Assembly: GCA_964610975.1 (NCBI GenBank)
Contig: CAZSYN010000007.1
Location: forward strand, 26,150 to 90,149
DNA: 64,000 nt
Origin: an uncultured Phycisphaeraceae bacterium
GTDB lineage: Bacteria > Planctomycetota > Phycisphaerae > WQYP01
Reading direction: 5' to 3'
Positions within the stretch are counted from its first letter, which is position 1. Each line of letters begins with the position of its first letter. The notes under the pieces were generated by a model. That model made no database searches and was not told where the DNA came from. It saw only the letters and a list, made by a program, of their open reading frames with translations. Made by a program: the position numbers and the translations under genes. Shown one piece after another: positions 18,942-48,715 of the stretch.

Positions 18942-18971
18942 GCTCCTTTTCGTGAGTCTTTTTCCCGGTCG

Positions 18972-32461: not shown

Positions 32462-33139
32462 TCACCAAAAGCGTGGATAATCCCACGCGTAGGTTGTGGC
32501 GGATGTCATCTGCAAAACCTGCCCGCGCGCGGTACCGGCGGCCACGCCGGAGGCCCGGCCGAGCGCAATCAGTGCCCACTGAACACCCGTGCCACCTTGA
32601 CGCCACAAAATGGCGGACGATCCCGCGGTGCCGGCTCCCAGATAGGCAACCTGGCCATCGACAATTTCTACATACGGATAATCATTGGTAGTGTCCGGAA
32701 CGGTGATCTGGACCGGGCAGGCGCCGGCAGCATACGCCATGCCAATAGCTCCGGCTTTCAGCGGTTCTAAATTGATGATGTACCGGCCGATATGCGTCTT
32801 GGTGCGCGGTATGACGCCGGATACCGCCACCTTGTTTTTGAAGGAATCCAGATTGGCATCCGGCGTGATAATCGGGCCATTGACGCCCAGCACGCAGAAG
32901 CGATTGAGATCACTTCCCGTATCGTTGCGTACCAGAATGATGCCGCTGGAACGCTGGGCAGCCTGGGGCGTCGATGAGAGATTCCGCTGGCGGGATTGAT
33001 AATCGAGGGCCGTATCAATGAACGCATTGTACGTGGCGGCAGGGATGCGCAGCTTGTCGCCGGACTTCACTTTTTTAAATGAATCGCTCATGGCAATCTC
33101 TTTGTTCCAAATAAAATGATTCACCACTGAGAAGAACAA
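32462..33139 (-). CDS. Tail / baseplate protein (hypothetical)
   Basis: Assigned by position in the tail module. Confidence 0.4.
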   Translation of the reverse strand: MFFSVVNHFIWNKEIAMSDSFKKVKSGDKLRIPAATYNAFIDTALDYQSRQRNLSSTPQAAQRSSGIILVRNDTGSDLNRFCVLGVNGPIITPDANLDSFKNKVAVSGVIPRTKTHIGRYIINLEPLKAGAIGMAYAAGACPVQITVPDTTNDYPYVEIVDGQVAYLGAGTAGSSAILWRQGGTGVQWALIALGRASGVAAGTARGQVLQMTSATTYAWDYPRFW

Positions 33140-33297: not shown

Positions 33298-34098
33298 TTA
33301 GTTGATAGCCAGTCCTGCAAAATCCGCCAGGTCATAAACCTTTTCGATGTACACCGCCACCGGCTTTTTGATCAGCGTCTTGGATGATGTATCCTCGGCA
33401 TCCTGGTAGCGCACCCACATGTATTCCCAGCCTTTTTTGTTGATGCCCGTGATACTGCCGACGGTCAGATTGGTGACATTGAGCGATCCGGCGAACTTGA
33501 AGGTGATCTCCCAATCATCATCAGCCGATTTGCCGCGCCTCGAACCCGAGGCGCCCAGGAACAGACATTCACCGGCCTGAAAGCCGCGGAACACGGTACT
33601 ATTCGCCTTGCCGGTGAGCACAAACAGCTGGCGCTTGTAGGCGTCCGTCACCACGGAGGCCGACAGGTAATGCGTCTCGGAGAACTGGTAGACCGGGATC
33701 GTAATATCCACGCCTTCGACACTGTCATGCGTGACACCCACGGCGCCGCCCATATCCGGCGCACTGCTGGGGTAGCGATTCACGGTGCCCAGGCTCTGGG
33801 TGATATGCTGTGTCCCGCCGCCGGTATCAAAAGAGAAGGATGATTCACCGGTTTCCGGCTTCTGGTTGTCAGGTGTGACGTAGCGAACCGTGCCATCCCA
33901 CAGAGAGGGGCCGACCGGCTCAATCCGCAGCGTCTGGCGGATCAGACCGTTGTAATCAGTGGGTGCAGTTGCCGCCAGTGACTGCTTGGCCAGCAGATCG
34001 TCGTCCGTACCGGAGACGACATATTGCAACTCCACCTGCGAACTGTCGGCGTCGGTGCTGTCCCGGCTGATGAGTTTTTCAACAACGGTGATAGGCAT
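33298..34098 (-). CDS. Tail protein downstream of the tape measure (distal-tail-like, hypothetical)
   Basis: Assigned by position in the tail module. Confidence 0.4.
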   Translation of the reverse strand: MPITVVEKLISRDSTDADSSQVELQYVVSGTDDDLLAKQSLAATAPTDYNGLIRQTLRIEPVGPSLWDGTVRYVTPDNQKPETGESSFSFDTGGGTQHITQSLGTVNRYPSSAPDMGGAVGVTHDSVEGVDITIPVYQFSETHYLSASVVTDAYKRQLFVLTGKANSTVFRGFQAGECLFLGASGSRRGKSADDDWEITFKFAGSLNVTNLTVGSITGINKKGWEYMWVRYQDAEDTSSKTLIKKPVAVYIEKVYDLADFAGLAIN

Positions 34099-34103
34099 TG
34101 CGA

Positions 34104-34195
34104 TAGGCTGTTAGACTGTAGACTATTAGACGGTTAGGAAGAAGGGTGCCGTGTATGTGTGCCTAATAGCCTAACAGTCTGTAGTCTAACAGTCT
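34104..34195. repeat. IVS-like palindromic element, copy 1
   Basis: Arms taggctgttagactgtagactattagacggttagg and cctaatagcctaacagtctgtagtctaacagtctc. It fills the gap between two genes. Confidence 0.7.
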
Positions 34196-34210
34196 CTTCT
34201 GCCCCTCCTT

Positions 34211-36202
34211 TCAGTCAAACTCCATCTCGTCATCCTGCTCGGCCATATCGACGAGTTTCTTGGTATGCTTGGCCGTGTCTTCGGAGGCTTTGGCAATACG
34301 ATCGGCCATGTTCCCACCAGCCATCCCACGGGCCTCAAAAGCATTAAAGGAACCGACGACGCCGATGGTCTTCTGGGCAATCGTTGGCCCGAGTCCCTCC
34401 AGGTAATCCGGCATGGAGGGCGGCTCCTGTAAACGATCCGGTCCCTGGGCGTTCTTGAGTTGGCGTTTCTTCTTGGCTTCGGCGATGGACTTCTGCCATT
34501 CTTCGCGGGTCTTGTTTAGCTCATCCTGCGATTCCTGCATCTTTTTGGCGTACTCATCGTCCAGTTCTTTCTCTTTATCCTGGGATTCCTGGCCGATCTG
34601 GGTGAGCGCCGCTTCGTGGGTTTGGGTCTCATCAGCGCGTTCCTGCCGACGTTGCTGTTCGCGCGCCTGCAGGGCGGATTGTTTCTGCTTATCGATCTCG
34701 GCATTGGTGGCAGCCAAGTCCTCATCGGCCATCTTCTTGGCCGCATCCACATCTAGGCTTGAATCAAACAATCCCTGCAGATCCAGCAATCGCTTGGCCG
34801 TCCAGTTGATGGCGGTATTCCAGGCCTTCTGGAATCCGGCTGTAAAGCTGGTCCAGACTTTGGATAGGAATGCGGTCGTCTCAATCCAGGCGACTTCAAA
34901 GCCGTGCCAGACGATCTCGCAGGCCGCCAGTGCGCCATAAAACGCGTCATAGGCCATCTTGATAAAGAAGTTTCGGAACGTCAGCCAGACTGATTCGAGT
35001 ACCTGCACTCCCTTGATCCAGGCAATCTTCAAAGTGAGCCACAGAATCTGTGCCGCCAAGGCGATATCGCCGGCCGCCAGAGCATCGGAGATGCCTGCAA
35101 ATGCCTGCGAGGCAAATTCTGATAGCTCCCCAAACCGCTGCCCCAGCCAGTCCAGCGCCTTGCCACCCAGACCGGAGGCGTAAACCAGATACGCTCCCAG
35201 CGCCACCACGGCCGCCGTGACCAGGCCAATCGGAGTCAATAACCAGGCAATCACCGATCCTACCGCACCCAATACCGTACCGACCCCGGTGACAATACTG
35301 GCCAGCACGCCCAATACACCACCGATGAACACGATGGCCTTGCCTAATAGCATGAGCGCCGTGCCGGCGGCCGAAACCACCAGGGCAATTTTGAACACGC
35401 TGACCACCAGATCCTTGTTCTGCTTGATCCAGGTGGTTCCTTTGACCACGATGTCAATGAGAACATTGGCCCACTGCGTCAGCAGCGGTGCAATGGAAGA
35501 ACCGAGCGTATTGGCGAGCTTTTTGAGCACTTTCCACAGGGTAGAGAGGGTTTCTTCCAGTTCAGCGCCGATCTGGACGCCAGCGGCGGAGGCCGTAAGC
35601 CCCAGCCGCCGGGCCTGCTCCTGCATGGCCTCAATACCGGCCGCGCCTTGGGAGAGCATCGGGAGAAGAGACGTACCGTTGCGGCCGAAGATCGCCAGCG
35701 CCAATGCCGCGCGTATCGCTGGGCTTTGAATGCTGGCAAGTTTGTCGGCAATCAATTTGAACTGCTGGTCGGGCGACAGGCCGCGCAGGTCATCCACCGT
35801 CAACCCCAATTGCGCCAGTGCATCGGTGGCAGCTTTCGATCCCATCGCGGCGGCGGCAATGGTCTTTTGCATCTTGCGGATACCCAGTTCCAGCGTGTCG
35901 ATGTCGGAGCCGGAGATCTGAGCGGCATAGCCGAGTTCTGAAAGTGCCTCCACGGAGATGCCTGTCCGCTGGCTCATGCTGAGTAACTCTTTGGAGCCGG
36001 AAGCGGATGCCTTGGCAAAGGCAATCAGCGGCGCGGTAATGACTGACCCGGCAGCGGCCAGCTTTTTACCCCAGCCGCTGATGGCATCGCCGAAGGCCTT
36101 GAGCTTCTTGTTGGCGCTCTGCAGGCCGCGCACGAGTTTGGAATCGTTGACAAACAACTCCACATAGGCGGCCCCGGCGCGTATGGAACGGGCATCGGCC
36201 AT
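34211..36202 (-). CDS. Tail tape-measure protein
   Basis: 663 aa, Ala/Gly-rich, with coiled coil and TM segments. The N-terminus is typical of TP901-family tape-measure proteins. No SD is present; element copy 2 abuts the ATG. Confidence 0.8.
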   Translation of the reverse strand: MADARSIRAGAAYVELFVNDSKLVRGLQSANKKLKAFGDAISGWGKKLAAAGSVITAPLIAFAKASASGSKELLSMSQRTGISVEALSELGYAAQISGSDIDTLELGIRKMQKTIAAAAMGSKAATDALAQLGLTVDDLRGLSPDQQFKLIADKLASIQSPAIRAALALAIFGRNGTSLLPMLSQGAAGIEAMQEQARRLGLTASAAGVQIGAELEETLSTLWKVLKKLANTLGSSIAPLLTQWANVLIDIVVKGTTWIKQNKDLVVSVFKIALVVSAAGTALMLLGKAIVFIGGVLGVLASIVTGVGTVLGAVGSVIAWLLTPIGLVTAAVVALGAYLVYASGLGGKALDWLGQRFGELSEFASQAFAGISDALAAGDIALAAQILWLTLKIAWIKGVQVLESVWLTFRNFFIKMAYDAFYGALAACEIVWHGFEVAWIETTAFLSKVWTSFTAGFQKAWNTAINWTAKRLLDLQGLFDSSLDVDAAKKMADEDLAATNAEIDKQKQSALQAREQQRRQERADETQTHEAALTQIGQESQDKEKELDDEYAKKMQESQDELNKTREEWQKSIAEAKKKRQLKNAQGPDRLQEPPSMPDYLEGLGPTIAQKTIGVVGSFNAFEARGMAGGNMADRIAKASEDTAKHTKKLVDMAEQDDEMEFD

Positions 36203-36206
36203 GGGG

Positions 36207-36330
36207 ATTAGGCTATTGGGAAAGGCATTTAGGCTACAGGCTGTTAGACTATTAGGTCAGGCAATGTCATACACTCCTCTTTTTCCTAACAGCCTAATAG
36301 TCTGCAGTCTAATAGTCTTTCTCAATAGCC
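36207..36330. repeat. IVS-like palindromic element, copy 2
   Basis: Arms ...aggctacaggctgttagactattaggtcagg and cctaacagcctaatagtctgcagtctaatagtc. Confidence 0.7.
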
Positions 36331-36339
36331 TCCTTTCTT

Positions 36340-37113
36340 TCAAGCGGTTTGTCCGGTTAACTCACGAATGTCCTCCACCGGCGAGGTCTTGATCGCCAGC
36401 CAGAACGACCCGCGCACGAGACTTTCAATCAGCACCCATAAGCCGACCGTCAGAATGACCCCGCCGGCCACCCACGGCAGCCAGTGCTGAATCTGGCCGA
36501 CGATCATGCAGGCAACCACCACAGCCAGACCACCGGCGCCGCCGGCAATGGAAATTCGGAAGTCGTGCATCAGGACGCCGACCGCCACGGCAATGCCGAT
36601 CGCGACAATCGCGAGCCATGAGATGGTGCGGAACATCGACTCCCACTTGCTGTTGGCGGCGGCGAGCTTTTTCTCCCAGGCGGTGTTGTCGTCGGCCCGG
36701 CCTTTTTTCTCTGTTTCCAGTGCGGCTGCTGTCTGCTGCATTTCCTTCTTGCCGGCTTGCACTTCGGATTTAAGGGTATCGATGTCCTTGCGGACATCGG
36801 CGAGCGCATTGCCCTGCGCCAGCAGTATCTGGGCGTTTGCAATAATGCGCGACCAGAAGGGATCCAGTGTGGGACGTACGGATTCCGGCGTGGCATCATG
36901 ACCAGCGCGCGCGGCAGTGGCGATTTCGGCTGCCGAACCGCTCACCTGCGTGGCCGCCGACGAGACCTTCTGGCCAATGTCATCAGCATGGCTATCGGCA
37001 TTGGACCAGGAGGATTCGGGCTGGGTTTGCGAGACGCAGCCATAAAAGGCGCCGATGAGCACTATTAATAAGGATAGGAATAACGTCAGTTTGAGAACAT
37101 CACGGTTCATCAA
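36340..37113 (-). CDS. Membrane protein with a coiled coil (N-terminal signal anchor, C-terminal TM helices), possibly a moron
   Basis: 'MMNRDVLKLTLFLSLLIVLIGAFYGC...' followed by multiple TM helices. It is inserted between the chaperones and the tape measure. Confidence 0.45.
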   Translation of the reverse strand: MMNRDVLKLTLFLSLLIVLIGAFYGCVSQTQPESSWSNADSHADDIGQKVSSAATQVSGSAAEIATAARAGHDATPESVRPTLDPFWSRIIANAQILLAQGNALADVRKDIDTLKSEVQAGKKEMQQTAAALETEKKGRADDNTAWEKKLAAANSKWESMFRTISWLAIVAIGIAVAVGVLMHDFRISIAGGAGGLAVVVACMIVGQIQHWLPWVAGGVILTVGLWVLIESLVRGSFWLAIKTSPVEDIRELTGQTA

Positions 37114-37376
37114 GGATTCTCCTGTTTGGGAGGGTTATCCACAAAAACGGATTTGAGCATTTGAATGTCACCCCGCAGCGGGCGCTCCTGCGTGTGCCCG
37201 CGGACCGGCATGGGATGAAAATCCACTGGCTTGAACGCCCGTATCCGTTTGGGGCGATTGACGTTGGCCAGCATTGCGAGAATCACAGACGTGTGATTCC
37301 ACATTTCGCGCTGGCGCGACTCGGTCATCTCCAGCAATTGCCTCAAGGTGAAGCAGCCGGGGTTGATTCCGAGCAT
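37110..37376 (-). CDS. Tail assembly chaperone, GT-like frameshift partner (putative)
   Basis: It overlaps the upstream chaperone ORF by 34 nt, directly ahead of the tape-measure region. Confidence 0.4.
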   Translation of the reverse strand: MLGINPGCFTLRQLLEMTESRQREMWNHTSVILAMLANVNRPKRIRAFKPVDFHPMPVRGHTQERPLRGDIQMLKSVFVDNPPKQENP

Positions 37377-37843
37377 TCCGGCGCACTGCCAGATGAGTTG
37401 CTCGGCGTGGATCGCTGCACGGCCAGCAGATTCTGAAGCTGGTTTTCCAGTTCCGGGCTTTCCAGACGAGTCTCCACCGCTGTCAGCGCGGCCGTCTCGA
37501 ATTTCCGCAGCCTGGCCAGAGCCTTGCTGAGTACTCTCCGCCGGCCCGCAGGGAAAAAATCGACCAGTTCCTCCAGCAGCGCGGTCGTTGCGCCATCAAT
37601 GGCGTCGCCCGCCATCGCCCGGCCAAAATCAACATCCGAGATCTTCTGGGCGTCGGCCTCCGGCTTGCAGATCACATAAATGATGTCGCAGAGCAGCAGC
37701 GGATCGGAGATGAGCTGCTCCAGCAGTTTGCCTTCGACCACTTCCAGCAGATTCACCTTGACGAGGTCGCGCACACGCCGGATCACATCCACATTGACCT
37801 GGATGGTCCACGTGCGGCCGGCGTTGTCGACAAAGGTTTTCAT
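37343..37843 (-). CDS. Tail assembly chaperone (gpG-like)
   Basis: Acidic 166-aa protein lying between the major tail protein and the tape measure. Confidence 0.45.
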   Translation of the reverse strand: MKTFVDNAGRTWTIQVNVDVIRRVRDLVKVNLLEVVEGKLLEQLISDPLLLCDIIYVICKPEADAQKISDVDFGRAMAGDAIDGATTALLEELVDFFPAGRRRVLSKALARLRKFETAALTAVETRLESPELENQLQNLLAVQRSTPSNSSGSAPECSESTPAASP

Positions 37844-37853
37844 GGGAACTCCA

Positions 37854-38282
37854 GACTGTTAGGCTGTAGACTGTTGGACTGTTAGGAGAACACAAACATG
37901 CGTGATCACACCAAACTCACCGCTTTCCACAAAGCTGATGCTCTGGCATTGGCGGTCTACCAAGTCACGCGGAGTTTTCCGCGCGAAGAACAGTTTGGGT
38001 TAACCAGCCAGATGCGCCGCGCGGCAGTTTCCGTCGCGTCGAACATCGTCGAAGGCTGCGCTCGGCGTACCGAAGCTGATTATCTACACTTTCTTGATAT
38101 GGCATTCGGATCACTCCGTGAACTAAGCTATCAGTTGTCTTTAGCTTTCCGACTGGGCTACCAAACCCAGGAGACTTACGATCCAGTCCGATTACAGGCC
38201 GAAGAATGTTCCAAGGTGCTTGCAGCGCTGATCCGCTCTTTCCGCAGTGCCTAACAGTCAAATAGTCTGTAGCCCAACAGTA
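37854..38282. repeat. IVS-like palindromic element, copy 3, carrying a cargo ORF
   Basis: The left arm gactgttaggctgtagactgttggactgttagg is identical to copy 4. The right arm is cctaacagtcaaatagtctgtagcccaacagt. The arms flank the plus-strand four-helix-bundle gene. Confidence 0.7.
37898..38254 (+). CDS. Four-helix-bundle protein (PF05635 / TIGR02436; 23S rRNA intervening-sequence protein family; family of the DGR accessory protein Avd)
   Basis: 'FHKADALALAVYQVTRSFPREEQFGLTSQMRRAAVSVASNIVEGCARRTEADYLHFLDMAFGSLRELSYQL' matches the family consensus. The RBS GGAG is formed by the end of the element arm. It runs opposite to all neighbouring genes. Confidence 0.8.
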   Translation: MRDHTKLTAFHKADALALAVYQVTRSFPREEQFGLTSQMRRAAVSVASNIVEGCARRTEADYLHFLDMAFGSLRELSYQLSLAFRLGYQTQETYDPVRLQAEECSKVLAALIRSFRSA

Positions 38283-38288
38283 TGGGGC

Positions 38289-38744
38289 CTACGGCCCCAC
38301 GGTCTTCCACACCGGCGGATTAACCGAATACGTCGGCTTGGCCGTCACCTTCACACTGATGGCATCTTCCAGCGGTTCATCCCGGCTGAAGTCCGTGATC
38401 ATGCAGTCGGCCCACAAGCCTTGGTTGCCATTGGAGCCGGCGCCGGTGATCGGGCCATCCATCACGGCCAGGCCGATGATCGAATTATTAAAATACGCAT
38501 CCTTGATGGCTGTAAAGCCGGCGTCGGCCGTGTCCCACACCATCTCAAACTCAATGGTTCCTTCCTTGAGCGTGCCGGCGGTGGCCTTCCAGCCATTGTT
38601 GGCACGCGTGGTGACATCCGCTTCACCTTTCTGCAAGGTCAGCGTGACATTTTTGACGTTGGTCAGCTCGGTCCAGGTCGGCGTACCGCCGATGCCTGCG
38701 GCGCAGAAGTACAATTTTGCATCTAAGCCAAACTTTACACCCAT
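38289..38744 (-). CDS. Major tail (tail tube) protein
   Basis: The 151-aa size, composition and position match TP901-1 / lambda-V-like tube proteins. Confidence 0.6.
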   Translation of the reverse strand: MGVKFGLDAKLYFCAAGIGGTPTWTELTNVKNVTLTLQKGEADVTTRANNGWKATAGTLKEGTIEFEMVWDTADAGFTAIKDAYFNNSIIGLAVMDGPITGAGSNGNQGLWADCMITDFSRDEPLEDAISVKVTAKPTYSVNPPVWKTVGP

Positions 38745-38757
38745 AAAAACTCCTTGG

Positions 38758-38895
38758 ATAGACTGTTAGGCTGTAGACTGTTGGACTGTTAGGAGTAATT
38801 AAGACTATTAGACTACAGACGGTTAGGCGGTTAGGAAAAAAACCAAAGACGTCGTTGCCCGACCTAACTGCCTAACAGTCTGTAGCCCAACTGCC
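38758..38895. repeat. IVS-like palindromic element, copy 4
   Basis: Same 33-nt left arm as copy 3, additional units, and right arm ctaactgcctaacagtctgtagcccaactgcc. Confidence 0.7.
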
Positions 38896-39288
38896 TTACC
38901 TCACTGATCCGGCCCACATGGCAGGCAGACGGTCTTTTACTTGTTCCAGTGCCGGTCCCATGAACGGCCTCCGGTCGTAACGCTCGCGTTTGTACTTGCC
39001 ACCGAACTCATGCGCTGCGCCGGAAGTCCCGGCCACCTGACGATCCGGCCCGATCACCACGGACTGCTTATCTTTCACCACTGCGTATTTGATCGCGTTA
39101 CGCATCCGCCCTTTGCGTGTGTTAGGCGGCGTACCAGAAGGAGATTTCTTGGGCGACTTTTTGATCGAATGCCGCGCGATTAAACGTACGGCAGCGCCCG
39201 CGTGGCCGAGATTACGGATGTTGGCCTTTTTGGCAGCCCACCGAATCTTGCTGTTATCCGTCTTGATCTTGGCTTTGGCCTGAATCAT
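38896..39288 (-). CDS. Tail completion / virion morphogenesis protein (HK97 gp10-like, putative)
   Basis: Basic 130-aa protein upstream of the major tail gene. Confidence 0.4.
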   Translation of the reverse strand: MIQAKAKIKTDNSKIRWAAKKANIRNLGHAGAAVRLIARHSIKKSPKKSPSGTPPNTRKGRMRNAIKYAVVKDKQSVVIGPDRQVAGTSGAAHEFGGKYKRERYDRRPFMGPALEQVKDRLPAMWAGSVR

Positions 39289-39294
39289 GGTTAT

Positions 39295-39437
39295 GTGAGA
39301 CTGTAGGCTGTTAGGCTATTAGGCTGTTAGGTCAGACAATGACGCCTTGGACTCTTTTCCTAACAGCCTAACAGTCTGTAGTCTAATAGTCTTAATTCCT
39401 CCCAAAAGTCAAACAGCCTGTAGCCTAATAGTCTTCC
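39295..39437. repeat. IVS-like palindromic element, copy 5
   Basis: Arms gagactgtaggctgttaggctattaggctgttaggtcag and cctaacagcctaacagtctgtagtctaatagtc, plus an extra half-arm. Confidence 0.7.
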
Positions 39438-39889
39438 TACCGTGCCACTCTGTACGTGACCGTCAGCACGCTGGTAAAGACCTGCTTCTGCTCCAAATGC
39501 TCGGGCGAATAAATCGGAACATTTTCGGTTTTCACCCAGATCGCAGAACCTTCACAGCCATCCTTGCCGAGTACCAACCGCCTGAGACGCAGGTAATCGG
39601 CGATCTGCTCTGCCAAGGCCATCAGGGGATCCAGTTCTGATGTACTGATTGAGCTGATTTTCTTCTGAACCGCCACATCCACTGACACATCATGCTGATT
39701 GATATTGCGGCCCAAACTTGCAATCTCAATCTTTTTGGGCACCACTGTCACTCTTAAAGTTTTGAGCTGCGCCAGATCATATTCTGGTTTGTACTGACGC
39801 TCCGCCGTAAACCCCTGTGCAAATGTCCCGGCCTGCGCGGTATTGAGTACATTAACAATCGCATTGGCAACCGATACAACCATGCTCAT
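39437..39889 (-). CDS. Head-tail joining / tail terminator-like protein (hypothetical)
   Basis: Assigned by position in the head-tail module. Confidence 0.35.
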   Translation of the reverse strand: MSMVVSVANAIVNVLNTAQAGTFAQGFTAERQYKPEYDLAQLKTLRVTVVPKKIEIASLGRNINQHDVSVDVAVQKKISSISTSELDPLMALAEQIADYLRLRRLVLGKDGCEGSAIWVKTENVPIYSPEHLEQKQVFTSVLTVTYRVAR

Positions 39890-40164
39890 GACGATTCACC
39901 ACTTCTCTGCGGCCGGCGTGGCCGCTTGGGTTCCAGATTCAGACGAGAAATTTCAGCATCAATCTCTTCTTTGGTCCCGATCAACATCGTGTTGCTGGCC
40001 GGCGTACCGACCCGGCCTTCACCAGGTGCAAGCAATTCAATAACCTGCTTGCCATCATGAACCAGCACATATTTGTCCGGATAAACATCCGACTGCTTGA
40101 TCTCCACTGTGGAGGAAGCGATTTCCTGCATGTTTGGAATCCTTAATTGGTGGTGACGGTCCAA
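39886..40164 (-). CDS. Hypothetical small structural-module protein
   Basis: ORF with overlapping start/stop coupling to its neighbours. Confidence 0.35.
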   Translation of the reverse strand: MDRHHQLRIPNMQEIASSTVEIKQSDVYPDKYVLVHDGKQVIELLAPGEGRVGTPASNTMLIGTKEEIDAEISRLNLEPKRPRRPQRSGESS

Positions 40165-40715
40165 CCCCGGCTGATAAGCGTGTTTTTCAGTGCCACTCCG
40201 TTTGGATTGGATGGCGCAGCATTGGCGCCACTGCTCATATCCAAATACCCATTGGTCATGCCGCTGGCCACCATGTCGGTAAGTACCTGGTCAATCATGG
40301 CCTGCGGCAATGCACATCCCATCAGATAGAGATAGTGCATATTCGTACATCCCTGAAGATTGATAAAGGTCAAACTGGTGCAGAAATAGACATCCAGTTC
40401 GGTAATGTTCGTATTGCCGTGGGCATCCACTTCCAGCAGACTTTTGTTATTACCGGCATAGCAGCCATTGAGTTTGGGCAAACGCCAAATTTCCAGTTTT
40501 GTAAGCTGGCAACTGTATACATCCAGCGAAGCAAGATTTTTCAGGTCGTTCCACGGTAAGGTTGTGAGTAGCTGGTTTTCACAAATCAGTTCAGTCAGGT
40601 TCGGCATGTTGATACTATCGATTCGCTCAACAAACCCGGACCAGGGCAATACCAGCATGGGCCACTGTTCCAGTGGCGGATAGGTAATCAGAGGCTCAGA
40701 CTTCCATGCCGGCAT
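40143..40715 (-). CDS. Leucine-rich-repeat (LRR) protein encoded inside the head-tail module
   Basis: The LRR units 'LTELICENQLLTTLPWNDLKNLASLDVYSCQLTKLEI...LLEVDAHGNTNITELDVYFCTSLTFINLQGCTNMHYLYLMGC' are present. Its start overlaps the stop of the upstream gene. Confidence 0.6.
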   Translation of the reverse strand: MPAWKSEPLITYPPLEQWPMLVLPWSGFVERIDSINMPNLTELICENQLLTTLPWNDLKNLASLDVYSCQLTKLEIWRLPKLNGCYAGNNKSLLEVDAHGNTNITELDVYFCTSLTFINLQGCTNMHYLYLMGCALPQAMIDQVLTDMVASGMTNGYLDMSSGANAAPSNPNGVALKNTLISRGWTVTTN

Positions 40716-41047
40716 CAGCGAATCTCCACAAACAAGTCTGTAAAATTCACACCGGCTACCAGGTTCCGAGCAACGATACGTGCGCCAACGGCAATACCGC
40801 CGGGAATGACGATCTCCCGCCAGTAGTTGGGCGGGATCAAAAACGACTTCTCCTGGCCGGCGGCATCACCGATGGAGACCAGGGCGCCGCCGGAACCCAC
40901 GCGAATAAAGGCCAGCCGGCTCTCGTGGGTGACACTGCCTGAACTCGCGGTGGTGTAAGTATCACCACCGGTTGACCAGTAAAGCAGATCCGGCTTGCCG
41001 GCGCCCTCCAGAACAGGTCCGCCGACATCCACATGCATAAGACCCAT
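40715..41047 (-). CDS. Hypothetical head-tail module protein
   Basis: Start refined to the ATG at 41047 with a GGAGG RBS. Confidence 0.4.
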   Translation of the reverse strand: MGLMHVDVGGPVLEGAGKPDLLYWSTGGDTYTTASSGSVTHESRLAFIRVGSGGALVSIGDAAGQEKSFLIPPNYWREIVIPGGIAVGARIVARNLVAGVNFTDLFVEIR

Positions 41048-41051
41048 GACA

Positions 41052-41291
41052 TCAGCCTCCGACGATGATGAGTTTCCAAAGAGCCGACACTGCCAGCGAT
41101 ACCACGGCGCCGGCAATAACCCAAAGCACGCGCGAACGCGTGCGTTCAGAGGCTTCCAGCCGATCCAGCCGCGCATAAATACCCGGCTTGCCGTTGCCAC
41201 GGATGGCCTCATCGAGCCGATCAAGCTTGACGTGGATCTCGGCTAGTTCCTGCCGATGCAGGCGGTCCAGTTCTTCTTCAGCGTGTGTCAT
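41052..41291 (-). CDS. Small coiled-coil protein with a C-terminal TM helix
   Basis: '...RLDRLEASERTRSRVLWVIAGAVVSLAVSALWKLIIVGG'. Confidence 0.4.
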   Translation of the reverse strand: MTHAEEELDRLHRQELAEIHVKLDRLDEAIRGNGKPGIYARLDRLEASERTRSRVLWVIAGAVVSLAVSALWKLIIVGG

Positions 41292-41665
41292 GATGCGTCA
41301 ACCTGCTTCGTGTGTATCCGGTACGTTCGGCGATAAGGATCGCTGTAACGCCAGCAGGGCTCATCACCCGGCGCCATGACTTCGTACACATAAGAATGGT
41401 CGCCATCAGTCTCGGTGATGCGATCTCCGCGCTGGGGTGTTACCGCCTGGCCACCCAGCACCAAATCACTGGCCGTAATCAAAAAGTCTCGGCTCTCCAC
41501 GCGCAGTGCGGCGCCGGTGCCGTCATCTACTTCAAAGACGGTCTGTCCGATGGTGGCAGCGATTTGCAGTGTCTGCTCACCACGCTGATATACAACCATG
41601 CGCGACATGAATTTTGCGCGCTGATTCTGAAGCCAGTCAGATGCTTGTTGAAGAAGATCAGGCAT
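41288..41665 (-). CDS. Head-tail connector / adaptor protein (gp6-like, putative)
   Basis: 125-aa protein placed after the capsid and decoration genes. Confidence 0.4.
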   Translation of the reverse strand: MPDLLQQASDWLQNQRAKFMSRMVVYQRGEQTLQIAATIGQTVFEVDDGTGAALRVESRDFLITASDLVLGGQAVTPQRGDRITETDGDHSYVYEVMAPGDEPCWRYSDPYRRTYRIHTKQVDAS

Positions 41666-41820
41666 AGGCTGTTGAAACAGACTATTAGACTACAGGCGTT
41701 TTGGCTGTTAGGAGAGAAATCAATCGCACAAATGTATGACCCAACAGTCAAATGGCCTGTGGTCTAACAGCCTTTCCTTCTGACCAAACAGTCAAACAGT
41801 CTGTAGCCTAACAGTCTCCT
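41664..41820. repeat. IVS-like palindromic element, copy 6
   Basis: Arms ataggctgttgaaacagactattagactacaggcgttttggctgttagg and ccaacagtcaaatggcctgtggtctaacagcc, plus ccaaacagtcaaacagtctgtagcctaacagtctcc. Confidence 0.7.
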
Positions 41821-41822
41821 CC

Positions 41823-42152
41823 TCACTGGCTCAGCCGCGCACGAACCTTTTCATCATCATCCGAGGCCGCGCGAACCGTTTTGCCGATTCCCTTATTGCC
41901 TGCGGAAGTCGTGGTCGCCTGCTGCGCGGTGGCATTCCAATAAAGAATTGCCCCAACCGCGATGGCCGTACCAGCGCCCTTGGCCTTGGGAAAATCAAAA
42001 ATACCATCCACGACCAGACCGCCGGTGGTATTGGCCGGAATCGGCCGAGCGGCCACACCCACCAGTTCCCCCTGTACCACTACCGATCCAGCAGCAACAT
42101 CCGCAGCGGGGGTGTAATCAATCGCCGATCCATCACTGACAAAAGTCGCCAT
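41823..42152 (-). CDS. Head decoration / DUF2190-like protein (putative)
   Basis: Gly/Ala-rich 109-aa protein directly after the capsid gene. Confidence 0.4.
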   Translation of the reverse strand: MATFVSDGSAIDYTPAADVAAGSVVVQGELVGVAARPIPANTTGGLVVDGIFDFPKAKGAGTAIAVGAILYWNATAQQATTTSAGNKGIGKTVRAASDDDEKVRARLSQ

Positions 42153-42208
42153 GTGCGAGTTTCCTTTTTTTAATTCATCATTCAGACTTCAGCATTCAGA
42201 ATTCGCTC

Positions 42209-44314
42209 TTACGCTTCTCCTTTGTTCTTCACGCCCGCGCGCGGATCCTGCATCGCCACGCCAAAATCGTGATAACCGCGCACCGTGATGCCCAGCACAT
42301 TGGGATTGGCTTCAATCGTTTCAATGGTGGGCGACTCATTACCATTCAGGAACGCGACTTCAATTAGCGGCAGGTCGTTGGCATCCGCCAGCAGGTACCA
42401 GGCCTTCTGGCTGGAGCCAGCGTACCGGGCATTGCCCAGGTATCGACTGACTTCCACCCGGTAGGCATTCTGGTGCGGGTTGGCGATCGGCATTTTGGTA
42501 TTGCTGGTCGTATCGCGGATTTCCGTCGACTTATAAAGCTGCGTCGCCATGGCCGAGAGTGACGTCGGCACCAGCAATACTTTCGGATCGACGCTGATCG
42601 GCTTGCCATCCGAATCGACCTGATCATTAAACGCCTGCACTGCATTACTCAGGGAATCAATTCCCAGCACCGTACCGGCGCCGGAGAGATAATTCTTATT
42701 GGCGGCGGCGAAGATGGCAGCATTGTTCAGGAAGATCGTCCAGAACACATCATTGATCTTCAGACCCGACCCACGGCCGAGCTTGCGCGGCACGGTGGTG
42801 ATGGCGCCCAGATCATCATTGATGATGTCGCGCCGTTCAATCGTCAGCATCAGGCCGTAAGTGTCGGCCTTGTTGGTGTAGATTTCATTACCGAGGGTGC
42901 CGTGCTTAAGCTCACCGCCGGGCGCAATCAATTCATACTGATCGGTACCGATCAAGCGGTAGCTCGTGACGGTCTTAAAGTCCGTCACACTGCGGACCGC
43001 ACAGATATTCCGCCAGGTCCGTTCAACCGAGAAGAATCCGTCGAGCAGGAACTTATTACCGACATTCGAGAGAATCGGCGCGATATCAATCGTGGCATAT
43101 CCCGCCTCAATCTGCGCTTTGCTCGGGAAGGCCATCGCCATGATGGTATGCGGATCACTGCGGAAGGTGCGGCCGATGTAACCATTGACCATCGCCGCTT
43201 CCACCATCAGGTCCTGCAGGCTGATTCCGTTCCGGAATCGTTTGCTGGCGGCATCCAGATCCTGCTCGCTGCAGTGGTTTCCCGGTTTGGATAAACCTGC
43301 CGAGAGCAGACAGGCCGCCTCCAGCATGGCCGATGTCGTCGGTCCAGGCGAAGCAAAGCTAAAGCCCATCGGCGCACCCATGACATTGCCACCCGCCACG
43401 GGCGCCTTGGGCCGACTGGCGCGCAGAACTTCCAGTTCCGTCTTGGTCTGATCCCAGCCATCACGAATCGCCTGCGCTTCAATATCTGTACACTTGCCAT
43501 TGCAGATTCGGCGAATGCCGGCGATGCGGTTGGTCTCCGCAAGCGCTTCGGCGCGAATCTGATCCATACTGCGAACATCCGCTGCATTGACCGCAGATAC
43601 GGCGGCCGCCTGAACCGGCGGAGCGGCAACAGCGGTGCCAGCAGAACCAGTACCTGTCGACGTGCTGGCGGATGTTGAATTGGTAGTGGTGGAAGTGTTT
43701 GTGGTAATACCGTCCATCGTGGCGGTCTCCTTTTCATGTACTGTATCGATCTGCGACGCGGCCACCTGCGCAGAGGTGTTGCCGTCGGCGCCCAGGTCTA
43801 CAAAACTGATCTCGCCCAGTGTTGCCTTGCGGACAACATTCACCGGGCCCTCAAACGTCCGGCCGTTGACAATGGCCTTCTGGCCATCTTTGACGAATTC
43901 AAACTCTTCCACTGACGCGCCAATACTGGCCTGCCAGGGGAAGCCATTCTTGGAACTGACGACAATCTCCCGCGCCGCCGGCGTATCCCGTGAGACCACG
44001 CCAGCCGCGATGAGTTGCCCGGCCTCTACGGAGATGGCATCAGTATGACCGACACCCGCACCCGCGCTGGCATCATGGCCAAAGCGGATCGGCCTGTTTT
44101 GACTCGGGATCGCCAGACCTGCCAGATCCACAATCACCGGGAAGCGCCAGCCGGCGATCCTCATCGGCCCGCCGGTGTAGGCCACCATGCGAAAGCGCGG
44201 CAAGGCTGGCGCAGCACCGGTTTCGCCCGCTGGCATGCCTGCCTCAATTTGAAAGCTCGCCAGCAGCGCCAGCGGACCGGCCTGATTGTCATTCTTCTTG
44301 GGCGACTGACTCAT
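42209..44314 (-). CDS. Prohead protease – major capsid protein fusion (HK97-fold)
   Basis: Start at 44314 (MSQSPKK) with an AGGAGA RBS. The N-terminal ~200 aa is protease-like (HD... and S.G segments). A Thr/Ser-rich linker follows, then a capsid-like C-terminal ~450 aa. Confidence 0.6.
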   Translation of the reverse strand: MSQSPKKNDNQAGPLALLASFQIEAGMPAGETGAAPALPRFRMVAYTGGPMRIAGWRFPVIVDLAGLAIPSQNRPIRFGHDASAGAGVGHTDAISVEAGQLIAAGVVSRDTPAAREIVVSSKNGFPWQASIGASVEEFEFVKDGQKAIVNGRTFEGPVNVVRKATLGEISFVDLGADGNTSAQVAASQIDTVHEKETATMDGITTNTSTTTNSTSASTSTGTGSAGTAVAAPPVQAAAVSAVNAADVRSMDQIRAEALAETNRIAGIRRICNGKCTDIEAQAIRDGWDQTKTELEVLRASRPKAPVAGGNVMGAPMGFSFASPGPTTSAMLEAACLLSAGLSKPGNHCSEQDLDAASKRFRNGISLQDLMVEAAMVNGYIGRTFRSDPHTIMAMAFPSKAQIEAGYATIDIAPILSNVGNKFLLDGFFSVERTWRNICAVRSVTDFKTVTSYRLIGTDQYELIAPGGELKHGTLGNEIYTNKADTYGLMLTIERRDIINDDLGAITTVPRKLGRGSGLKINDVFWTIFLNNAAIFAAANKNYLSGAGTVLGIDSLSNAVQAFNDQVDSDGKPISVDPKVLLVPTSLSAMATQLYKSTEIRDTTSNTKMPIANPHQNAYRVEVSRYLGNARYAGSSQKAWYLLADANDLPLIEVAFLNGNESPTIETIEANPNVLGITVRGYHDFGVAMQDPRAGVKNKGEA

Positions 44315-45851
44315 CGTCATTCTCCTGATCCACAGGTGTACTTGCTGGGGTTGAGGTCGTCGGCGTCGCAACCAACCCGAGTTCCTTCATCAACGCCATT
44401 TCCTTGGCTCTCTGGCGCAGCTCAGCTTCCCAGTCGCGTCCCTGGCGCGCATATTCATAGGCAAGGGTGGTGGTATTGCTGGCCAGGCGCGTGGCCTGAG
44501 CATTGGCTTCCTTGGCCGGGTCTACATGTTCCTGGCCATCCCAAAACCACTGGTGGAGAGGCAAGGCTGTTTGGCTGCAGGCTGTTTGACTGTTAGCTTC
44601 GCCTAACAGCCCAACAGTCAAACGGCCTAACAGTCCTTCCACTAATCTGGCTTCGCTCAACCAAGCCCGCAAAATCGGATCGAGTACCACGCGACCCATA
44701 TGCGCCTGATCGACGCGGATCGATTTGTAATAGACCTGATGATCCAGACGTCCCGACGCGTAGTTGTAGCCCGATGAATTGCCCGCCGCGACATTAAACG
44801 GCATGTTCAGGCAGCGAGAGATTTCGTTGAGGATTTCCTTTTTGAATTCACCGTAAGTCGTCGTCGGCTGCTCGGCGGTGACCTGACCCAGTTTCCATCC
44901 ACCGGGCAAGACCGTTGCCATGCGCCGTTCCAACTCCACGATATCCATCGGTTCAACTGGATCGGCCTCGCCGTTGGCGGGCGCATCGGTATACAAAACC
45001 GCTGCAAAATCCGCAGCCGTCTCCGCTGCCGCAATCACCGCAAGCGTGTAACGCCGCAATTGGGCAAACAGTGGCAGCGCGGCCGTGATCTCTGGAATCC
45101 CCCGGCTCTGGCCGGGACGATCAGTACGGTAATAATGAATCATCGCACTGGCTGGGATCCGATCAAAGCCAGAAAGCCACGATCCGAAGAGTGAGTTATC
45201 ACCTGGATGCGCACGAAGCAAATGATATTCAACAGGATTCCCGTAGTTGTCATACACAATGCCATCAGTCAGGCTGTTAGGCTGTAGACTGTTAGACTGT
45301 TTGTGCCTAATAGCCAAACGGTCTAAAAAGCTAACAGCCTCCCACGGCGTGCTGATCTGGTCCGCTTCAAAGAGCTTCAGATCCAGCTTCACCGGCGAAT
45401 CAATCATGGGATTGGCTACCAGCATGCCAAAGACTTCACCCGATTCGGCGCGCGAAGCGCGCATGGTGCGGAGCTTTTCAGGGAGCCGAATTGCCTCCGC
45501 CCAGTGCATAAACTCCTGCTCGGCCACCCGGTTGGCTGCATCCTGCTCGGTGAGCATCTGCAAGCGCGGGCCGGTACCGACGACATCATTAGCGAGCGTG
45601 AGCACAATCCCACGGGCATACGAGTTGTTCGCTACCTCGTAGCGCGCACGAGCACGCAAGGTCTTGCGTACGGCCGCACTGTTGGCGGCGTTCGCCGAGA
45701 GATGATCGGCGGCGGCCCAGTGGCGACGGTTATCGTCATTGGTGGCCGCCGCATCATAGCGGCCGCCAATCCGCATGGGCACGTGCACAAAGCGCGTGAC
45801 CCGCTGCACCGATTGCGCCGGCAGAAGTTTTTTGAGTAGTCCCATCATCAC
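44289..45851 (-). CDS. Portal protein
   Basis: The 520-aa size, position after the terminase, and the '...RYEVANNSYARGIV...' N-terminus are typical of lambda/HK97-type portals. It contains two in-frame repeat-element insertions. Confidence 0.7.
   Translation of the reverse strand: MMMGLLKKLLPAQSVQRVTRFVHVPMRIGGRYDAAATNDDNRRHWAAADHLSANAANSAAVRKTLRARARYEVANNSYARGIVLTLANDVVGTGPRLQMLTEQDAANRVAEQEFMHWAEAIRLPEKLRTMRASRAESGEVFGMLVANPMIDSPVKLDLKLFEADQISTPWEAVSFLDRLAIRHKQSNSLQPNSLTDGIVYDNYGNPVEYHLLRAHPGDNSLFGSWLSGFDRIPASAMIHYYRTDRPGQSRGIPEITAALPLFAQLRRYTLAVIAAAETAADFAAVLYTDAPANGEADPVEPMDIVELERRMATVLPGGWKLGQVTAEQPTTTYGEFKKEILNEISRCLNMPFNVAAGNSSGYNYASGRLDHQVYYKSIRVDQAHMGRVVLDPILRAWLSEARLVEGLLGRLTVGLLGEANSQTACSQTALPLHQWFWDGQEHVDPAKEANAQATRLASNTTTLAYEYARQGRDWEAELRQRAKEMALMKELGLVATPTTSTPASTPVDQENDDESVAQEE
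44571..44650. repeat. IVS-like palindromic element, copy 7 (in frame within portal)
   Basis: gcaaggctgtttggctgcaggctgtttgactgttagc / ttcgcctaacagcccaacagtcaaacggcctaacagtcc, translated as 'LLGRLTVGLLGEANSQTACSQTA'. Confidence 0.65.
45261..45333. repeat. IVS-like palindromic element, copy 8 (in frame within portal)
   Basis: aggctgttaggctgtagactgttagactgtttg / gcctaatagccaaacggtctaaaaagctaacagcctcc, translated as 'EAVSFLDRLAIRHKQSNSLQPNSLTDG'. Confidence 0.65.
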
Positions 45852-46223: not shown

Positions 46224-46418
46224 TTATGCCCGTTCGCGCGTAGGGATGCGCCGGCCACAATAACGACACTCACGCAGACGCATGATGCAACCCGGCCGGG
46301 CACGCGTATACACAACATCCAGATGCCGGCAACCGCACTTGGGACATGCAAGACCACGCGGAACGGGTGCATGGTCCGTCCTTGCGGAATTTTCGTTGAT
46401 GGGTAATGGGTCTCTCAT
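46224..46418 (-). CDS. C4 zinc-ribbon protein (NrdR / Ogr-Delta-like finger), translationally coupled to terminase
   Basis: 64 aa. 'CPKCG...VVYTRARPGCIMRLRECRYCGRRIPTRE' carries two CxxC pairs ~22 residues apart. It has an ATGA overlap with the TerL stop and a GGAGG RBS. Confidence 0.55.
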   Translation of the reverse strand: MRDPLPINENSARTDHAPVPRGLACPKCGCRHLDVVYTRARPGCIMRLRECRYCGRRIPTRERA

Positions 46419-48715
46419 CTCCGCCTCCCCTGGATATCGGATAAACGCACGCGCGCTTTGCGTGGCGCTTCCTTGCTGTCCGTGCCAAACAAGACCGCTC
46501 CCTGCATGCTCGCACCGACCGCGCAACCGACCAGACAATCCAGCCAGTGGTTATCCAGGCCCGGCGTGCGGAGTTTCCATTCATCAAGCTGACGGCCACG
46601 ACCGGATGTCTTGATGCAATACTCGGCGGCCAGATGCTCTGACACAAGCCGATGATCTGTACCAGCAAAGAGTGACAGACATCCCGGATCACCCATCGGC
46701 ACCGCCAAGCGTGCATGCACAAAACTCTTCCAGTAGTTGGTATCAATCAGCGCATACCGCACAGCGCGCTTGCCCTGCAGGTTGGGGATGCGCCAATGCA
46801 GCCCGGTGCGATCTCCCTTGCGCGGCTTGTAATCAGAGAACGGCGTACTGGCCGCGCCGACATAACGCCCGTGGCTGGGCATCACAATGGCCGAGTGTGC
46901 CGATTGTCGGCAGAACTGATACACCACATCGGTACTGTTGCCCCAGTTGGCGTCAATCAAACACCGCTCAATGGTCATCTCGGCGCCATCATCACGCTGG
47001 AACTTACGGGATAAATGCACTGCCGTCAGGGCCTCCAGCCCAGCGTAGATCGCCCCTTCCTGGCCGGTGCCGCTATGAACCAACATCAACGTCCGCCGAG
47101 CATCACGTAATGTAAAATACGCTCGCTTCTGGTCCGGATACTCCCCATAGTCCAGCACGTACCCAGTAAAATCATCCTCCCAACCGCAGATCAGCCAATA
47201 CAGCAGCGTCCCCTGCACATCCACAAACATCGTCAGATGGCTCACGCCGACCGGCAATTCGCCACGCTTCATACCATTGGTCTTCTCGGCAATCGTGTCC
47301 GCCGAGAGCATGTCGGATCCGAGCGTTTCCTCCGGTAGCGGTTCATTTTGGTATTCAGCCCAGAACGCGGCGTCCCCCTGATCCAGCTTGAGATTCATGG
47401 CATGCTGAATGGCCGAGAGTTCATCGGGATTGTACCGATGAGACCAGGCGACTTTGGCTCCCGCATCCATATCGATCTGGTTGGCATGATAAAACTCAGT
47501 CGCTTCGCCGACGCCACGGTCATTGCGCTGACCATCCGCACGGAGCTGGGCATACTGCTGCCAGAGTTTTTCGTTAGCGGGGAAAACATACACCATCTTC
47601 GTGCGCTGGCCCTGCCACTGCGGATGTTTATCGCGATTCAGGATCCGATCCGCCATATCATCCGGTCTCACGACCGTCAGCGTCATGAGACCAGCAATCT
47701 TGCGTCCCGGACCCGCCAACCCCAAAATCGCACCCGCCAGGATCTGCTCACGCGTGACACACTGGGAGGGTGACCGTGCCGATTCATCGGTTTGAGGATC
47801 ATCCAGCAGCACCAGCGACGGGCGCACCGTCTTGCCATCGGCCCGCTTGTGCTTCATGCCACGGATACGACCGGTGATGCCGGCGACCTTAATCACCGCA
47901 CCCGAGGCCGCGCTCCCCGGTATCGTCGGCAGCGCAATATCCTTGGCCGTCCAGCCAATATGGGTGCGCGCCCCCTGGTAAAGCTGCCCGGCTGCGCGCT
48001 GGTGGATCCCTTCGAGCGCCCGGATGGGCCCACAGGCCTCAGAAAAATCCTCCTCCAGCAGGTCGTTATTCTCCAGTTCCGATTTGATCGACTCGAGCAT
48101 ATCCCCGGCATGCTCTTCGTCCGCGCCGATCAGGGCCACAAATTCCCGGTGACCGTAGAGTAGCGCCCATAGGCAGGCAGTCTCGCACAAGGTGGTTTTG
48201 CCCGAGCCACGCGGCATGGCCATCGCAAACAGACCGCCATTGAGGACTGCCTCTTCAATCTTGGCAATGACTTTGAGGTGATCGTCCGACCAGGCCAGAT
48301 GAAACGTCTGTAGAAAGTACAACTCGCAAAATAGACGGAAGGACCGGCGGCAACGTTCCTTACGTTCCAGGTCCACCGGCGCATGGATCCAGTTCTCCTG
48401 GGTAATATCGCGCGAGGATTCCGACATCCCCCGGCTGCGCGCATTGACCGCCTCTTTGTGCGCCGCGTAATTCTTCTCCGTCCACCCCGGCTCAAAGGAT
48501 TCATGCCGCGCATGAAACAGCCACGCCGCGTAACGGACAAGATCGATACGTCGCCCATCACCGATGCGGTACGCCGCTCGGTTCAGGTGCCGATACACCA
48601 CATGCGGCCCAGCCACCTCGCCCAGCGGCGTGGAGTTCAGCAGCCGCACGACCTCGGCCACGCGAAGTTGTCGGGGATCCATTTTCACCTGGATTGCATC
48701 TCCCGCATCAGCCAC
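46415..48715 (-). CDS. Terminase large subunit with a ~200-aa N-terminal extension
   Basis: Walker A 'AMAMPRGSGKTT' and Walker B-like 'LVLLDDPQTDE', followed by a C-terminal nuclease region. Confidence 0.8.
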   Translation of the reverse strand: MADAGDAIQVKMDPRQLRVAEVVRLLNSTPLGEVAGPHVVYRHLNRAAYRIGDGRRIDLVRYAAWLFHARHESFEPGWTEKNYAAHKEAVNARSRGMSESSRDITQENWIHAPVDLERKERCRRSFRLFCELYFLQTFHLAWSDDHLKVIAKIEEAVLNGGLFAMAMPRGSGKTTLCETACLWALLYGHREFVALIGADEEHAGDMLESIKSELENNDLLEEDFSEACGPIRALEGIHQRAAGQLYQGARTHIGWTAKDIALPTIPGSAASGAVIKVAGITGRIRGMKHKRADGKTVRPSLVLLDDPQTDESARSPSQCVTREQILAGAILGLAGPGRKIAGLMTLTVVRPDDMADRILNRDKHPQWQGQRTKMVYVFPANEKLWQQYAQLRADGQRNDRGVGEATEFYHANQIDMDAGAKVAWSHRYNPDELSAIQHAMNLKLDQGDAAFWAEYQNEPLPEETLGSDMLSADTIAEKTNGMKRGELPVGVSHLTMFVDVQGTLLYWLICGWEDDFTGYVLDYGEYPDQKRAYFTLRDARRTLMLVHSGTGQEGAIYAGLEALTAVHLSRKFQRDDGAEMTIERCLIDANWGNSTDVVYQFCRQSAHSAIVMPSHGRYVGAASTPFSDYKPRKGDRTGLHWRIPNLQGKRAVRYALIDTNYWKSFVHARLAVPMGDPGCLSLFAGTDHRLVSEHLAAEYCIKTSGRGRQLDEWKLRTPGLDNHWLDCLVGCAVGASMQGAVLFGTDSKEAPRKARVRLSDIQGRRR

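Follow-up and report, generated by a model that had tools for sequence, protein, structure and literature searches.

The window analysed here, i.e. the whole stretch of 64,000 nucleotides from contig CAZSYN010000007.1 of an uncultured Phycisphaeraceae bacterium, consists in its left part of planctomycete chromosome, with genes for DUF1559/N-terminal-methylation proteins and insertion sequence (IS) elements, and from ~30 kb on of a siphovirus-like prophage that is transcribed from the minus strand. Within the late operon of this prophage lies a cassette of ~435 bp in total, which comprises an arm of tandem repeat units, a Shine-Dalgarno sequence, a gene for a 118-amino acid protein and a second arm complementary to the first. 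The gene belongs to the four-helix-bundle family that is named after the intervening sequences (IVS) of 23S rRNA. The parts of the cassette are as follows.

37851..37886, no strand: left arm, tandem units GACTGTTAG / GCTGTAG / ACTGTTGG / ACTGTTAGG
37898..38254, plus strand: four-helix-bundle gene, PF05635 / TIGR02436, antisense to the phage late operon
38250..38285, no strand: right arm, 83% complementary to the left one, includes the TAA stop codon

The open reading frame (ORF) of the cassette (37898..38254, plus strand) begins with ATG and spans 357 bp. Its product, which an earlier note on this DNA had assigned to PF05635/TIGR02436, matches both profiles far above their cut-offs and over the full domain, i.e. 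PF05635 with E = 5.1e-35 (120.4 bits vs a cut-off of 33.8; profile positions 2-105 of 106) and TIGR02436 with E = 2.6e-35 (120.9 bits vs a cut-off of 24; full-length). In a Pfam scan, PF05635 and bAvd were the only matches, and no transposase domain was found. The nearest solved structure is that of Xanthomonas campestris XCC0516 (PDB 2GSC; E = 4.8e-25, residues 2-116), with a second match to 2RLD (E = 3.3e-9), and by these matches the protein is homologous to a solved four-helix-bundle toroid. In total, the profile matches confirm ORF 37898-38254 as a full-length member of the four-helix-bundle '23S rRNA IVS protein' family, for which a first search returned more than 7,000 cluster representatives at E <= 0.001. 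Compared with close homologues, the gene has a ratio of nonsynonymous to synonymous substitution rates (dN/dS) of 0.05-0.2, with synonymous sites saturated; judged by these values, the protein is under purifying selection and is therefore functional. Neither a second copy nor a pseudogene of the ORF was found within the window.

The two arms (37851-37886 and 38250-38285) form an imperfect inverted repeat of 36 nt with 83% complementarity, lie 363 nt apart and are each composed of tandem units of 7-9 nt. They adjoin the gene so closely that they contribute to its signals: the innermost unit of the left arm supplies the Shine-Dalgarno sequence AGGAG (37883-37887), 10 nt 5' of the ATG, and the right arm's first unit includes the TAA stop codon (38252-38254). 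On their outer sides, the left arm overlaps the GGAG Shine-Dalgarno sequence of the minus-strand chaperone-position gene, and the right arm, which contains the unit CAACAGT, reaches to within 3 nt of the major tail protein gene's stop codon. The minimum-free-energy fold of 37846-38292 pairs both arms into a terminal stem, whichever strand is folded (z = -4.9 for the plus and -5.1 for the minus strand). Thus, the description in the earlier note of inverted arms around a plus-strand ORF, whose Shine-Dalgarno sequence is made by the last arm unit, holds in both respects. The arm motif ACTGTTRGR occurs 17 times in the window vs 1.1 times expected (none of 100 shuffles reached 17), and all 17 occurrences lie within 34170-45296; repeat finding in the window returned direct-repeat families with 10 left-type and 8 right-type arms.

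To determine whether the association of gene and arms extends beyond this locus, we examined 80 genome loci encoding homologues with 61-73% identity, most from Planctomycetota and others from Hydrogenedentota, Actinomycetota, Zixibacteria, Deinococcota, Gammaproteobacteria and further groups, and aligned the 100-nt upstream flank of each gene with its reverse-complemented 100-nt downstream flank. The mean score was 32 for flanks of the same locus vs 18.6 for flanks paired across different loci, and 32 of the 80 loci scored above the 95th percentile of this control. The homologue flanks are tandem arrays with, e.g., GGCTGTA, GACTGGA or GGCTTGA units upstream and their complements downstream. 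When a strict array pattern was applied around 85 IVP genes, a sense array was detected upstream of 36 and an antisense array downstream of 34, vs an array in the opposite orientation upstream of 3 and downstream of 7.

Moreover, we used a periodicity test that is agnostic to the unit sequence on 98 non-redundant homologue loci from many phyla, with random 100-nt windows taken from the same loci and shuffles as controls. A significant tandem array was present on at least one side of the gene in 66 loci and on both sides in 32; among the controls, the share was 5.8% for the random windows and 1% for the shuffles. The dominant period across the family is 7. Of 45 upstream arrays, 40 are rich in purines when read on the sense strand, and of 53 downstream arrays, 43 are rich in pyrimidines. 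Homologue arms are ~32 nt long, with a median of 19 nt between arm and ATG and of 5 nt between stop codon and arm. In other genomes, the spacing from sense to antisense array is bimodal, i.e. either 13-130 nt, corresponding to gene-less hairpins, or 344-544 nt, enclosing the four-helix-bundle gene or, in a few cases, tRNA genes. The link of the gene to stem-forming arms, which the earlier note had suggested, is thereby borne out across the family; because the 61-73% identical and the more distant homologues across phyla have arrays of their own, the link is not a local accident. The unit type of the arrays follows the phylogeny of the protein, and homologues with 75-82% identity keep the ACTGTTAG unit flavour despite saturated synonymous sites. 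That the unit flavour is kept over this divergence speaks for constraint on the arms or for their concerted evolution. Our literature searches, the coverage of which is incomplete, returned no publication in which inverted tandem arrays at the flanks are connected with PF05635 genes as a whole, and as far as the searchable literature shows, this link has not been described previously.

The closest parallel to the cassette is the IVS of rRNA. Warrier et al. described the 23S IVS of Coxiella burnetii as an element of 428 nt with a 28-bp terminal stem that is cut by RNase III (PMC4990558). The S23p ORF in this IVS is preceded by 3-4 tandem GACAGAT heptamers, the number of which varies by strain, and the 5' cut lies at the first repeat; the function and origin of IVS elements and of the S23p ORF have been unexplained for more than 30 years (PMC4990558). 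The cassette in the window shares with the C. burnetii IVS (and that of Leptospira; PMC4990558) the protein family, an element length of ~430 nt and stem-forming terminal inverted repeats that enclose the ORF, and with the Coxiella IVS also tandem heptamers between stem and start codon, a variable number of units and ORF-less relatives. By contrast, the cassette lies outside rRNA and is antisense to the phage late operon in which it sits. The protein in the window is under purifying selection, whereas the ORF of Coxiella is in decay and apparently not translated. The cassette is located between phage genes and not in helix 25 or 45 of 23S rRNA; among the 80 homologue loci, none had the 23S motifs that were searched for, and an Rfam scan of the window returned only a group II intron fragment. 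Thus, the cassette is not an IVS in the narrow sense. The proposal that 23S IVS and the phage element form one class is nevertheless supported by the common protein family and the common anatomy (PMC4990558), and the inserts in rRNA and in the phage appear to be elements of a single kind. Altogether, we consider it likely that the locus is an IVS-type, stem-bounded cassette in a planctomycete siphovirus-like prophage, which is probably removed from host transcripts by RNase III.

The prophage genes around the cassette have the following order.

52-62 kb, minus strand: replication module
46415-48715, minus strand: terminase
44289-45851, minus strand: portal
42209-44371, minus strand: protease-capsid
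38289..38744, minus strand: major tail protein gene (PHROG major tail families), upstream neighbour of the cassette in the late operon
37343..37843, minus strand: tail assembly chaperone-position gene, downstream neighbour of the cassette
34211-36202, minus strand: tape measure

The cassette occupies the entire spacer from the major tail gene to the chaperone-position gene (37343-37843), and the ORF map fits the four-helix-bundle ORF being the sole plus-strand gene of the structural module. We compared this junction in 160 related phage loci (80 from viral contigs and 80 from metagenomes; major tail protein identity 59-89%). The four-helix-bundle gene is encoded at none of the 160. In the closest relatives, a spacer of 15-70 nt separates the major tail gene from the start of the chaperone-position gene, and in the metagenome set the gap between the two genes is at most 100 nt in 53 of 70 loci. 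Inserts longer than 300 nt are present in 15 of 70 loci in this set, and those examined hold unrelated ORFs co-oriented with the operon; accessory genes in general thus have a hot spot at this junction. Cargo ORFs were observed at this junction in loci L093, L104, L147, L159, L202, L213, L225, L265 and others, and one such ORF in related phages encodes a 345-amino acid secreted, protease-like protein.

The nearest empty sites are in phages that are 84-89% identical in the neighbouring protein; their spacers are unalignable, and a target-site duplication could not be defined. A metagenome scan for a nearer phage relative returned nothing above 89%. Against the phage collection, the region 33-46 kb had no DNA match and the 118-amino acid protein no tblastn match, and the exact arm pattern had no match in viral contigs. 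Two related loci have other repeats beside the major tail gene, i.e. GGTCAGT units after it in L094 (~2198-2260) and a CTTGAGA/CTGCAGG hairpin directly before it in L237 (529-604).

Gene-less copies of the element, which the earlier note had seen scattered through the phage, are present at further sites in the window, and the two forms also co-occur in other genomes. Seven further gene-less hairpins or arms of cassette-type units were found, all in the head-tail module of the prophage, and they fold into long hairpins (z = -3.4 to -7.7).

34101..34199, no strand: gene-less hairpin in the spacer between tape measure and next tail gene; z = -5.3
36205..36333, no strand: gene-less hairpin upstream of the tape measure gene; z = -7.7
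38760..38795, no strand: orphan left-type arm just upstream of the major tail gene start; 35 nt identical to 37853-37888
38803..38895, no strand: gene-less hairpin in the spacer between tail-completion gene and major tail gene; z = -4.7
39297..39436, no strand: gene-less hairpin with an extra half-arm; z = -3.5
41672..41821, no strand: nested double gene-less hairpin downstream of the cement-like gene; z = -4.3
44562..44640, no strand: complete hairpin element in frame in the portal ORF; 78 nt, 26 codons, encoding GLLGRLTVGLLGEANSQTACSQTA
45270..45301, no strand: single left-type arm in frame in the portal ORF; ~33 nt, encoding HKQSNSLQPNSLT

The loop of 39297-39436 is homologous to that of 36205-36333 (family D2, 95% identity). 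None of the loops of the gene-less hairpins retains gene ends, and these hairpins are therefore not simple deletion derivatives of the cassette. The orphan arm at 38760-38795 could pair with the right arm at 38250-38285 and thus enclose the major tail cistron, so that the right arm has two alternative partners. In an alignment of the portal protein with those of loci L171/L173 (62% identical), the stretch of the hairpin 44562-44640 is 10 residues longer and aligns poorly, and the arm at 45270-45301 falls within a 16-residue insertion. The portal frame of L171 has a stop codon at the site equivalent to 45270-45301, i.e. the second of the two. A four-heptamer single-sided array (CTGAATG-type, minus strand) without an inverted partner lies at 42175-42205 in the spacer between the capsid stop codon and the start of the cement-like gene.

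Eight sites in the window have these units, all of them within the 34-45 kb module, as would be expected if the hairpins were intergenic regulatory structures that belong to the phage and the gene had landed in one of them by chance. We regard this as quite improbable. Related phages are nearly devoid of arrays of the window type (5 over 554 kb, 2 over 292 kb, vs 9 within 11 kb in the window), and two of the copies are inside the portal coding sequence, which is unexpected for a regulatory hairpin. Moreover, homologues in unrelated genomes have inverted arrays of their own that adjoin start and stop codons, and when the closest homologues were checked for flanking arrays, these were present.

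Homologues on plasmids were examined in cyanobacteria, alphaproteobacteria and Gemmatimonadota, where they have 31-44% identity to the 118-amino acid protein. The unit of the flanking inverted arrays differs between them: GGGTGTA in Calothrix (no operon insertion noted), GGTGACA in Anabaena sp. 90, where the gene lies in the cas6/cas4 spacer (type I-D), GGAGATA in Picosynechococcus, in the cas10/cmr3 spacer (type III-B), AGTCAGG in Aulosira and Nostoc, GGGAGTA in Nostoc edaphicum, where the gene is antisense between two ribonucleotide reductase genes, AAGGGAA in Geminocystis and GGACAGA in Azospirillum. The operon-inserted homologues on cyanobacterial plasmids are those of loci L163, L164, L166 and L180. 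The homologue in Calothrix sp. PCC 7716 has no array, that in Pseudanabaena has direct rather than inverted arrays, that in Nostoc PCC 7120 has mismatched flanks and an adjacent IS element, and that in Gemmatirosa has an array downstream only. The insertions in cas operons may be one contributor to the reported CRISPR association of the PF05635 family.

In Xanthomonas, orthologues of XCC0516 lie between accB and accC (L184-L188, ~2425-2875), i.e. in the essential acetyl-CoA carboxylase operon. The upstream array consists of GGGAATC, GGGAGTG, GAGAATC and GGGAATC, and the downstream array of CCATTCCC, CATTCCC, GACTCCC and TATTCCC. XCC0516 is thus not only the closest solved homologue of the protein in the window; its orthologues also lie within inverted GGGAATC-type arrays. 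They differ from the cassette in being co-oriented with the host operon and in their unit sequence. Rehm et al. described GGGAATC arrays in Xanthomonas, often as convergent pairs, and did not mention the XCC0516-type gene (PMC4692102).

In planctomycete genomes, 31 of 85 four-helix-bundle genes lie at most 300 nt from a tRNA gene, and the neighbouring tRNA genes are antisense in a ratio of 94 to 1. Planctomycete tRNA arrays, with up to 29 tRNA genes in 6 kb, hold cassettes as well as gene-less hairpins in their spacers (L013, L014, L018, L035, L046, L053, L056 and 15 more loci), and in homologous tRNA arrays the cassette is found in differing spacers (Trp|His, Ser|Ala, Ser|Ile).

The proteins closest to that in the window are encoded in late operons of related phages, again antisense and at other junctions. 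A 75% identical protein is encoded in the capsid/cement spacer (L171-L173, whose portal protein is 62% identical to that of the window), and an 82% identical protein (L167) between homologues of the window genes 33298-34098 and 32462-33139, i.e. at a distal tail junction. L167 (from 2431) and L169 (from 748) are 99.5% identical over 1091 nt, in a match that begins exactly at the left arm's outer edge and runs to the right; left of the arm edge they are unrelated, with tail genes in the one and cement and head-tail joining genes in the other.

Some of these observations could also be accounted for by an ordinary moron, i.e. an accessory gene that is expressed from the prophage, e.g. with a host-benefit or defence role, and that has no special tie to the arms, with the hairpins merely insulating it. 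The junction of major tail and chaperone-position gene is a hot spot for unrelated ORFs (inserts of more than 300 nt in 15 of 70 loci), morons are typically antisense, and homologues lie inside cas operons. Set against this, the arms travel and co-vary with the gene across phyla and contexts, and the other cargo at the junction is in operon orientation and has no such arms. Moreover, no promoter-like site was found, terminator-like sites, including an intrinsic terminator (GC-rich stem followed by a T run), are absent from 37400-38900, and PADLOC, which detects defence systems, returned no match for the four-helix-bundle gene. The defence-system reading was dropped on the latter ground, and we consider a moron as a whole unlikely.

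The four-helix-bundle fold family also includes Avd of diversity-generating retroelements (DGR), which binds RNA and a polymerase. The 118-amino acid protein is homologous to this family and has weak similarity to the Avd models, i.e. E = 1.1e-11 for PHROG 3206 (Avd), which would be in keeping with an Avd accessory of a DGR acting in trans. However, both curated Avd models score below their cut-offs (NF033474, 34.2 bits vs 80; PF22296, 30.7 bits vs 40). Similarly, no reverse transcriptase was matched among the 39 window ORFs scanned against Pfam, the largest ones included, and the repeat search of the window found no direct repeat resembling a template repeat/variable repeat (TR/VR) pair. The sole trace of a retroelement is a 5' fragment of a group II intron (6783-6924, minus strand; domain 1-4, Rfam RF02003, 104 bits), which lies outside the prophage and has neither a reverse transcriptase ORF nor a domain 5/6 match nearby. 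Thus, as the earlier note had held, a classical DGR is unsupported; an accessory role in a DGR was rejected for the window on the sub-cut-off Avd scores and the lack of a reverse transcriptase match among the 39 ORFs and of a TR/VR pair, and a DGR acting in trans is very improbable.

The surroundings of 6783-6924 contain IS/recombinase fragments, with an rve transposase at 4512-5477 and a Mutator-family transposase at 19080-20468. Near the 3' end of the ORF for the Mutator-family transposase there is a 57-nt direct repeat, the copies of which (18722-18778 and 18964-19020) are 88% identical and 242 nt apart.

Three further systems resemble the cassette in part. In REPIN-RAYT systems and MITEs (transposable elements of the miniature inverted-repeat type), a gene lies between inverted copies of a repeat, and many gene-less palindromic doublets of this repeat are present in intergenic DNA as well. 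The arm repeat of the window similarly occurs in dispersed gene-less palindromic copies; it differs in that the protein has no transposase domain and the arms are heptamer arrays, not a single repetitive extragenic palindromic (REP) sequence. Phage T7 has long imperfect hairpins between the cistrons of a polycistronic operon that are processed by RNase III. By contrast, the hairpins in the window form a repeat family that close relatives lack, and a gene lies within one of them. Finally, cyanobacterial short tandemly repeated repetitive (STRR) sequences are tandem heptamers located in intergenic regions and in helices of stable RNAs, and one of their reported units is CAACAGT. This unit is present in the right arm of the window, and cyanobacterial homologues are flanked by heptamer arrays; the units beside the cyanobacterial genes examined are unlike the three classical STRR sequences, and we treat the link as a lead.

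For the IVS-type cassette, we propose the following mechanism. The arms would form a duplex of ~36 bp whichever strand is transcribed, and by analogy with the Coxiella IVS, RNase III would cut this duplex, so that the insert is taken out of the host transcript or kept insulated inside it. The late transcript is antisense to the gene; here, the cut would part the cistron of the major tail protein from those of the chaperone and the tape measure, and the antisense insert would be discarded. The cassette and the gene-less hairpins together may thus act as processing or stabilising punctuation between late cistrons. Removal of the insert by RNase III would account for such cassettes being tolerated in essential and highly expressed operons, and in rRNA and tRNA arrays as well as in accBC, cas operons and the late operons of phages. 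As for the protein, we speculate that it binds the nucleic acid of the arms, by analogy with its homologue Avd, and that it may promote maintenance or spread of the cassette. We call the cassette mobile only in the sense of its presence/absence and its occurrence at multiple sites, as read from the genomes compared.

Several observations weigh against this proposal, in which RNase III cleavage, the mechanism of mobility and the function of the protein are inferred. No sigma-70-like promoter for the antisense gene was found nearby. Approximately one third of the homologue loci in the 98-locus test had no significant array. A test for G-U asymmetry, as a sign of selection on one RNA strand, was not significant (51 vs 36, p = 0.13), and arm pairing could instead matter at the level of DNA. 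The comparison of L167 and L169 points to recombination at the arm rather than clean transposition, or to a chimeric assembly. Finally, L171 has the four-helix-bundle gene and lacks the gene-less hairpins, and the protein is therefore not sufficient for the spread of hairpins.

A wider proposal is that PF05635 genes, inverted heptamer arrays and gene-less hairpins constitute one widespread, unrecognised class of self-propagating cassettes that colonise the transcribed spacers of highly expressed operons, from those of rRNA and tRNA arrays to accBC, cas and phage late operons. The protein would then be the element's own arm-binding factor, recruiting a host nuclease or polymerase, possibly via an RNA intermediate released by RNase III; Avd would be a domesticated offshoot, and the class would explain much of the heptamer excess, including the cyanobacterial STRR sequences and the GGGAATC arrays of Xanthomonas. 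We put this forward tentatively, as a possibility that is open to considerable doubt.

Altogether, our observations support that an IVS-type cassette exists outside rRNA, in a phage. The plan of the IVS is not special to rRNA: across phyla, the same package of gene and inverted arrays is found in tRNA arrays and essential operons, and here in the late operon of a phage. Two open puzzles are thereby joined, i.e. the purpose of the ORFs in IVS and the abundance of intergenic heptamer repeats, the excess of which in bacteria is unexplained (PMC4692102). Cassettes of this kind can mislead the annotation of operons, and for the large four-helix-bundle family they suggest a candidate partner, namely the repeats that flank its own genes.

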